From Escherichia coli (GTDB taxonomy: Bacteria > Pseudomonadota > Gammaproteobacteria > Enterobacterales > Enterobacteriaceae): 64,000 nucleotides of DNA. The stretch lies in assembly GCF_016026235.1 (NCBI RefSeq), contig NZ_CP065613.1. One strand, written 5' to 3'. How positions within the stretch are numbered: position 1 is the first letter of the stretch; each line of letters opens with the position of its first letter. The notes under the pieces were generated by a model. It made no database searches, had not been told where the DNA came from, and was given only the letters and a program-made list of their open reading frames with translations. Positions 34,836 to 35,468 of the stretch are shown one piece after another. Made by a program: the position numbers and the translations under genes.

Positions 34836-34870
34836 GCCGGATGCGGCGTAAACGCCTTATCCGGCCTACA
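34836..34870. repeat. REP palindromic unit downstream of aslB
   Basis: GCCGGATGCGGCGTAAACGCCTTATCCGGCCTACA; followed by the 15-mer ATTCAATAAATTGCA also found at 49307-49321. Confidence 0.7.
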
Positions 34871-34883
34871 TGATCGTGCAAAT

Positions 34884-35045
34884 TCAATAAATTGCAGCGT
34901 TCTGTGGATACTGGTTTGGGTGATCGTATCCGGCAAAGCCTTTGCGTGCGGTGGCAGTTGACGGGGTATCTGCTGCGCTGGCCATGAGAGGAAGAGCGGC
35001 GGCGACAGCAACAACAAGAAGTTTGGGTGAAAACGAAAATTCCAT
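34884..35045 (-). pseudogene. aslA: arylsulfatase aslA 5' remnant (53 codons; signal-peptide region only)
   Basis: Minus-strand ATG at 35045 reads [53 protein letters not shown] then stops inside the REP-linked motif; only ~240 bp separate it from aslB, where a ~1.65-kb gene is expected by synteny. Confidence 0.6.
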
Positions 35046-35468
35046 GCAAAATGCTCCGGTTTCATGTCATCAAAATGATGACGTAATTAAGCATTGATAA
35101 TTGAGATCCCTCTCCCTGACAGGATGATTACATAAATAATAGTGACAAAAATAAATTATTTATTTATCCAGAAAATGAATTGGAAAATCAGGAGAGCGTT
35201 TTCAATCCTACCTCTGGCGCAGTTGATATGTAAGGCAGGTTTATTATATCGCGTTGATTATTGATGCTTTTTTTAGTTTTAACGGCAATTAATATATGTG
35301 TTATTAATTGAATGAATTTTATCATTCATAATAAGTATGTGTAGGATCAAGCTCAGGTTAAATATTCACTCAGGAAGTTATTACTCAGGAAGCAAAGAGG
35401 ATTACAGAATTATCTCATAACAAGTGTTAAGGGATGTTATTTCCCGATTCTCTGTGGCATAATAAACG

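Follow-up and report, generated by a model that had tools for sequence, protein, structure and literature searches.

In a 64,000-nucleotide (nt) stretch of Escherichia coli DNA (contig NZ_CP065613.1 of assembly GCF_016026235.1; here called the window), the arylsulfatase gene aslA, which in full-length strains lies on the minus strand between aslB and the small-RNA gene glmZ, is represented only by an open reading frame (ORF) of 53 codons. Our comparisons make it very probable that this stub is a non-functional aslA remnant that was left by one old deletion of 1,578 bp. One end of the deletion lies inside a bacterial interspersed mosaic element (BIME), which contains repetitive extragenic palindromic (REP) units, and the two breaks can be read as cuts by TnpA_REP, a REP-associated tyrosine transposase (RAYT). 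As the leading mechanism we tentatively propose, from the sequence of the joint and its flanks, a RAYT-made deletion by single-strand breakage and rejoining.

The aslA deletion and the repeats at its left end

In the K-12 reference locus (L001, whose coordinates are used for K-12 throughout), aslB occupies positions 590-1825 on the plus strand and aslA positions 1984-3639 on the minus strand. Window positions 34600-34905 align to K-12 1625-1921, and 34907 onward aligns to K-12 3501 onward. By comparison with K-12, O157:H7, UTI89, BL21, ES3 and MS6198, the first four of which we take to span phylogroups A, B2 and E, 1,578 bp are absent from the window. The loss corresponds to K-12 1923-3500 or 1922-3499 (a one-base ambiguity) and takes in the second, inverted REP of the spacer (GTAGGCTGGATAAGATGCGTCAGCATCGCATCCGGC) minus its first bases, 28 more spacer bases and 1,517 of the 1,656 aslA bases, such that aslA codons 47-551 (505 codons) and the stop are gone. 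The break is at 34905/34906, where it interrupts the GTAG tetranucleotide of the REP that was lost. Position 34906, the junction base, is a G that matches neither flank, K-12 having A at both 1922 and 3500, and the parental flanks, CGTTCTGT|AGGCTGGATAAG and TTTAACCA|GATACTGG, are common to O157:H7, UTI89, BL21, ES3 and MS6198, as in K-12.

The original prediction, which was made from the letters of the window alone, had proposed alignment to K-12 and other strains as a check on its reading. This alignment places an aslA of ~1.66 kb at the locus in six strains and identifies the stub as its start, confirming that the body of aslA was removed by a deletion that left the 53-codon ORF behind. The layout that had been described, with aslB, one REP unit, the 53-codon ORF and a complete GlmZ, is likewise borne out by the sequence; the REP unit is present as stated, with the correction that it ends at 34869 rather than at 34870. 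We found no evidence against the core reading of a deletion remnant.

The window retains the first 139 bases of the ~1.66-kb gene. From 34907 onward its DNA is identical to K-12 3501-3894 at 392 of 394 bases, and 45 of the 46 residues at 1-46 of the stub ORF agree with K-12 AslA; the final seven, PQNAAIY, are read-through into the BIME linker. The sulfatase-family match in the 551-residue K-12 AslA begins at residue 83, the sulfatase domain is wholly absent from the stub, and the 53-residue stub product gave no family match against NCBIfam. Thus, with the catalytic domain lost and no family match, the stub is to be classed as a pseudogene remnant rather than as an enzyme of the family. PGAP/RefSeq labels it as a pseudogene, "arylsulfatase, incomplete, missing C-terminus". 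The opposite polarity would make the short ORF ancestral, or a genuine small gene, and aslA a gain or an extension in other lineages; it could draw on the ATG start, the GGAG 9 bases 5' of it and the signal-peptide-like N-terminus of the ORF. We consider this next to inconceivable, as the first 46 codons start a 551-residue sulfatase with a catalytic domain from about residue 83, the last seven codons and the stop lie in the linker of a repeat element, the stub matches no protein family, and full-length aslA is found in K-12, BL21, UTI89 and O157:H7 and is reported in phylogroups A, B2, D, E, F and G (PMC8844930). The deletion left untouched aslB, the remaining REP, the linker, the start of aslA, the aslA promoter region and GlmZ.

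The minus strand of the surviving REP (34836-34869) reads GTAGGCCGGATAAGGCGTTTACGCCGCATCCGGC, which consists of GTAG and a hairpin with an internal 2x2 mismatch. This REP folds with -12.2 kcal/mol (z = -4.05), has two related copies in the window, at 49329-49362 and 60713-60746, versus 0 expected, and resembles what we take to be the y-type REP consensus. Within the linker that follows it, ATTCAATAAATTG is one position off WATCAANNNNTTR, which we assume to be the consensus of integration host factor (IHF), and is a predicted IHF-like motif only. Judged by the consensus sequences, the full-length spacer presumably has a y-like REP first, then a long L linker and lastly a z1-like REP in inverted orientation. 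This is the architecture of BIME-1 (Bachellier et al.; Ton-Hoang et al. 2012, PMC3333891), and it is found between aslB and aslA in the full-length strains. The window, by contrast, does not hold a full BIME-1. The y-like REP and the L linker are present, and of the second, z1-like REP only GT is left, so that half a BIME runs directly into aslA coding sequence.

A 15-mer in this linker, ATTCAATAAATTGCA, underlies the claim of the original prediction that the deletion ends in a REP/BIME-linked motif and its suggestion that recombination between copies of the 15-mer, or of its REP/BIME motif, removed the aslA body. The first of these stands in part: the endpoint is inside the BIME, at 34905/34906, and not in the 15-mer. 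The repeat itself is real and adjoins the junction. As had been described, there are two exact copies in the window, at 34882-34896 and 49307-49321 (versus 0.17 expected, allowing up to 2 mismatches), the TGA stop of the ORF (TCA on the plus strand, 34884-34886) falls within the first copy, and the second copy is inside a complete BIME-like element after uvrD, where it is flanked by two inverted REP-like units. However, the 15-mer and the entire 34-base linker are intact at the same place in all six full-length strains, with the deletion break 9-10 bases to the right of the 15-mer, and the copy is thus outside the deleted DNA. The deleted K-12 DNA and its surroundings contain no second copy, and there is none in aslA, where the other end of the deletion lies; the lone match with up to 3 mismatches is at chance level, in the aslA-glmZ spacer and outside the deletion. 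The second copy, after uvrD, is 14 kb distant and was uninvolved. A deletion mediated by the 15-mer is therefore very improbable, and that suggestion did not hold. That the 15-mer is found again after uvrD reflects its place in the conserved L linker of BIME-1, and the stop codon lies within it because translation reads past the junction; it is no mark of a breakpoint. The BIME-1 L linker shows good conservation and often bears an IHF site (PMC3333891).

Junction alleles and their distribution

A set of 5,426 complete E. coli genomes was surveyed with an 80-base probe across the joint and a separate probe for the deleted aslA body. The junction was present in 1,728 genomes and the aslA body in the other 3,698, an exact partition, and an identical 40-mer across the joint was shared by 1,711 genomes. 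Such a survey of aslA presence and absence had been suggested by the original prediction, and its outcome is that the deletion allele serves as a lineage marker that is common and has been annotated before. It is typically carried by phylogroups B1 and C and by some A strains, its carriers including O26, O103, O111 and O104:H4, which we take to be B1, avian pathogenic E. coli (APEC) O78, which we take to be C, and ATCC 8739, presumably one of the A strains. In published surveys aslA is found in phylogroups A, B2, D, E, F and G but not in B1 sequence types (STs) or in ST410 of phylogroup C (PMC8844930), and it is also recorded as missing from B1 (PMC7796664). The RefSeq/PGAP aslA pseudogene of phylogroups B1/C has the same locus, the same junction and the same remnant, and as an object it does not differ from the stub described here. 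The literature that was searched held only presence/absence reports, with no breakpoint mapping, origin of the deletion or aslA pseudogene. The allele is thus already known, and novelty may lie only in the match of its breakpoints to RAYT cleavage rules.

A search with a probe that carries A in place of G at the junction base revealed the joint CTGTA|GATAC, at 100% identity, in three genomes, EcPF16, KFu022 and Z1323PEC0010 (loci L017, L018 and L019; joint at ~1320-1330). Because A stands at that position in both parental flanks, this A-joint is the product of the deletion alone, and its presence in three genomes indicates that the primary event was a clean 1,578-bp loss with one shared base. 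The simplest account of the G at 34906, which the window shares with about 1,720 other genomes, is a later A→G transition. The three A-joint genomes are on two different left-flank haplotypes, and ATCC 8739 has the same flanks as two of them, yet G at the junction base, a pattern that needs either recombination or a recurrent change of the junction base.

The joint of HH97 (NZ_CP116409.1; L009 1225-1245, about window 34900-34912) reads CTGT-GGGGG-ATAC, compared to the common CTGT-GG-ATAC. The flanks of this genome match K-12 at all sites at which K-12 and the window differ, over ~1.1 kb on the left side and ~950 bases on the right; beyond these limits there are two window-type bases. HH97 is also the sole deletion genome with the short form of the hairpin that follows aslB. 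It could represent an independent recurrence, a very short recombination patch combined with an insertion, or an assembly error. If the locus were a recurrent hotspot at which the same two sites were joined more than once, with HH97 as an independent case, this would account for a deletion on K-12-like flanks with the short hairpin form and a differing joint, and for the occurrence of the A-joint on two left-flank haplotypes. We nevertheless regard recurrence as unlikely, given that one exact 40-mer is found in 1,711 genomes, that a recombination patch of <190 bp with a GGG insertion also explains HH97, that short-tract mosaicism is common at the locus, as ATCC 8739 shows, and that the extra Gs of HH97 could be an assembly error. 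A graded series of G runs linking the G5 of HH97 to the common G2 was considered and dropped, as no G3 or G4 allele was found. A metagenome scan for GCAGCGTTCTGT, 0-10 bases and ATACTGGTTTGGGTG returned 5 contigs, all with the common GG joint.

Other changes at the locus were encountered in single genomes. In BS-01 (L020 405-425) the joint is 7 bases shorter and reads GCAG-TT-GATAC, and one further genome has a divergent joint region. P377 (L016 3400-3480) carries an independent aslA deletion that has lost K-12 2417-3579, with the joint in a short GA-rich overlap; the 5' part of aslA and its start are removed and GlmZ is left. Like the window, P377 has thus undergone an independent loss of most of aslA at this locus. 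Unlike the window, it is a singleton, and its joint is in a GA-rich short repeat with neither a REP edge nor a CC|TAC. The insertion sequence (IS) IS1 is present at the locus in two genomes: PM4-5 has it in the region of the deletion allele, SW071611 in a full-length aslA. An IS-mediated origin of the deletion was rejected, as these two IS1 copies are separate and recent and the junction has no IS end or target duplication. As a separate observation, aslA is strongly diverged between strains. The allele of BL21, which we take to be a phylogroup A strain, is 94.4% identical to that of K-12 and near that of UTI89, and 1,940 genomes fall in the 90-95% identity band of the aslA-body probe; the aslA locus looks like a recombination mosaic.

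Candidate mechanisms at the joint

In vitro, TnpA_REP binds a REP with a 5' GTAG and a stem mismatch, which is needed on the same strand, and it cuts site II of an inverted REP (iREP) at (G/T)(G/T/A)CC|TAC(A/C/G) as well as other C|T sites over >400 nt, the C|T being indispensable for cutting (PMC3333891). The reaction has a 5'-phosphotyrosine intermediate, the enzyme can join the 3'-OH of one site to the 5' end of another, and the model of the authors is excision between two such sites (PMC3333891).

Read 5' to 3', the parental minus strand contains aslA, the inverted z1-like REP ending in CCAGCC|TACAG, the L linker and the y-like REP starting with GTAGGCCGG. On this strand the left break is CCAGCC|TACAG (K-12 1923|1922), a published CC|TAC site, and the right break is GTATC|TGG (3501|3500; site context AACCAGTATC|TGGTTAAACC), a C|T, which is found at 5.4% of aslA positions. 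Both breaks are on the strand that has the intact GTAG-hairpin REP with its stem mismatch, and this REP is kept next to the joint. The joint predicted from the two sites, GTATC-TACAG, is CTGTA|GATAC on the plus strand and is found exactly in three genomes, without loss or gain of a base; the window and most other carriers have G there.

These features point, with the reserve stated above, to the following sequence of events. TnpA_REP bound to the surviving minus-strand REP would cut CC|TAC in the inverted REP and make a second cut in aslA, at the C|T (GTATC|TGG) 1.58 kb upstream. Joining of the upstream 3'-OH to the downstream 5' end would give GTATC-TACAG (product GTATCTACAGAACGC), and a later A→G change at 34906 (T→C on the minus strand) would remove the regenerated C|T site. 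The aslA deletion might then be a fixed in vivo footprint of TnpA_REP excising 1.5 kb of coding DNA, an extension that we offer as a possibility falling short of an even chance. In that footprint reading, and with similar caution, the T→C change in nearly all carriers may have made the joint immune to re-cutting. Cuts at the plus-strand CT just 5' of GTAG, or at CTGG in aslA, were also considered as RAYT products; the joints that they predict were not observed.

The deletion resembles TnpA_REP activity in vitro and IS200/IS605 excision in its same-strand C|T breaks, the iREP site II in CTAC, the GTAG REP in cis and, in the three A-joint genomes, the seamless joint. It differs from the TnpA_REP model in what was excised, not a BIME but one REP together with 1.5 kb of a gene, and in the strand, which is the leading-strand template; present-day B1 strains, moreover, mostly lack the enzyme that the model requires. 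The REPIN excisions of Pseudomonas fluorescens SBW25 (Bertels and Rainey 2011, PMC3116915) are, similarly, natural deletions with ends that are set by a REP and asymmetric to the repeat. However, those events involve a REP doublet only, in another genus and with another RAYT group, whereas at aslA one REP and the neighbouring gene were removed and the deletion became fixed in a lineage.

Several points weigh against cutting by TnpA_REP. The fit to the RAYT rules was noticed post hoc, and the activity of the enzyme has been shown in vitro only, over hundreds and not 1,600 bases; we know of no in vivo TnpA_REP activity. Position -4 of the left site is A and not G/T, the junction base in the window is G and not the predicted A, such that a second step is needed, and stalling of a polymerase at the foot of the REP hairpin would give the same left break. 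In addition, GC skew is positive in every 8-kb bin of the window, indicating that the minus strand is the leading-strand template, and IS200/IS605-type enzymes prefer the lagging-strand template. In our reading aslA has the minus strand as its non-template strand. Single-stranded DNA could also come from other sources, for example transcription or R-loops, as the authors allow (PMC3333891). Finally, tnpA_REP is replaced by hicAB in most B1 strains (PMC3333891), and the event must therefore predate this loss or have arisen in a strain that still carried the gene. The gene is ancestral in E. coli and is present in ATCC 8739 (PMC3333891); its locus, yafL-fhiA, lies outside the window.

The same single deletion could instead be the work of host processes, either the stalling of a replication fork at the foot of the z1-like REP hairpin with a template switch by the nascent end, or another illegitimate end-joining; the single shared A would be the only overlap, and a REP-like 16-mer in aslA may have served as a pairing aid. 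Indeed, 1-2 bases separate the left break from the hairpin foot, the right break falls in a perfect small palindrome, AACCAG-TAT-CTGGTT, and ordinary microhomology deletions of aslA do occur, as in P377. BIME-dependent polymerase stalling sites have been noted (PMC3333891). Furthermore, the sole direct repeat of at least 15/16 in K-12 1826-3700 is ATCG[C/T]ATCCGGCAAAG, at 1944 and 3517, with its copies 22 and 16 bases to the right of the two breaks, and 30 shuffles gave none. One copy (1944-1959) is in the lost REP and the other (3517-3532, window 34923-34938) covers aslA codons about 36-41; the start of aslA is thus REP-like, which suggests that the aslA site may have paired with the BIME. 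By contrast, an overlap of one base is very short for slippage, and P377 used a longer, repeat-flanked overlap. Host processes also do not predict a same-strand C|T at the right break alongside CC|TAC, and the product of in-register recombination at the 16-mer, CTGTAGGCTGGATACTGG, is found in 0 of the 5,426 genomes. An origin in host processes is the main rival to TnpA_REP and, in our estimate, about equally likely, a serious possibility without being a probable one.

A two-step variant was also examined, consisting of an in-register deletion of 1,573 bp on GATA-N12-ATCG[C/T]ATCCGGCAAAG (K-12 1928/1944 and 3501/3517) and a subsequent loss of 5 bases. It was dropped, as its intermediate, CTGTAGGCTGGATACTGG, is in 0/5,426 genomes and the simpler A-joint exists. 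The 15/16 repeat near both breaks is left as an unexplained coincidence.

Flanking genes and biological meaning

Along the window the order of features is the tRNA cluster, aslB, hairpin, REP, linker, stub ORF, glmZ and hemY (Table 1).

Table 1 Features of the aslA locus in the window, with the BIME-1-like element after uvrD for comparison
Feature	Position	Strand	Basis or remark
aslB, anaerobic sulfatase maturase, intact, 411 aa	33565..34800	+	ORF list, TIGR03942 match
Terminator-like G+C-rich hairpin with a T-run after it on the minus strand	34803..34825	-	terminator scan
Surviving REP of the one-time BIME-1	34836..34869	-	related copies, fold
L linker of BIME-1, complete, 34 bases, with the 15-mer and the IHF-like motif	34870..34903	.	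identical in K-12 and O157
Deletion junction: GT of the GTAG of the lost z1-like REP and junction base G at 34906	34904..34906	.	
aslA 5' remnant, codons 1-46 plus one base: signal peptide and N-terminus	34907..35045	-	K-12 alignment
53-codon ORF: 46 aslA codons and 7 read-through codons (PQNAAIY)	34884..35045	-	ORF list
aslA-glmZ divergent intergenic region, 424 bp, full length	35046..35469	.	K-12 alignment
glmZ small-RNA gene, intact, own terminator at 35642-35671	35470..35676	+	RF00083, terminator scan
Complete BIME-1-like element after uvrD: degenerate REP, linker, inverted REP at 49329-49362	49260..49362	.	comparison only, outside the deletion

The aslB product matches TIGR03942 with 519.7 bits (cut-off 349) and has 11 amino acid differences from that of K-12, with a dN/dS of 0.09. 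The gene is annotated as intact in every deletion genome listed. AslB is a radical-SAM maturase that we presume to serve AslA; its integrity without this presumed partner suggests another substrate or a constraint that is independent of aslA. GlmZ matches RF00083 with 218.4 bits (gathering cut-off 60) over model positions 1-214 of 214 and is identical to K-12 across 35470-35676. The intergenic region between aslA and glmZ has two base differences from K-12, at 35269 and 35469, the latter, just before the GlmZ match, being A→G relative to K-12. That GlmZ and the region upstream of aslA were spared, as had been predicted, is thus evident from the identity of the former and the full length of the latter.

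The hairpin at 34803-34825 has a 9-bp indel polymorphism. Its long form, which on the minus strand resembles an intrinsic terminator facing aslA, is found in the window, O157:H7 and ATCC 8739, and the short form in K-12, UTI89, BL21 and HH97. From its sequence the minus-strand hairpin appears terminator-like for transcripts from the aslA promoter. To the right of the locus, an additional gene of 591 bp, annotated as "hypothetical protein", separates the GlmZ terminator from hemY in some strains, among them MS6198 (L006 2954-3544) and E41-1; the insertion in MS6198 corresponds to a position just right of window 35679. The hemX gene (window 36923-38176) encodes a long terminal run of Pro-Ala dipeptides through a hexanucleotide repeat at about 36930-37010. 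Almost all strains retrieved have a hemX protein accession of their own, an indication that the length of this repeat varies between strains.

The loss of aslA is in itself of little weight, being a common annotated lineage marker that has already been reported for B1/C, and the deletion left GlmZ, its upstream region and aslB unchanged. It does mean that aslA presence or absence in virulence surveys reflects one old deletion and not the repeated gain of an invasion gene. If the TnpA_REP mechanism is true, REP-associated transposases could delete neighbouring genes as well as move repeats, and the aslA deletion would be a rare natural case of such a transposase reshaping gene content. The locus would then offer a concrete pair of substrates with which to test the enzyme in vitro and in vivo.

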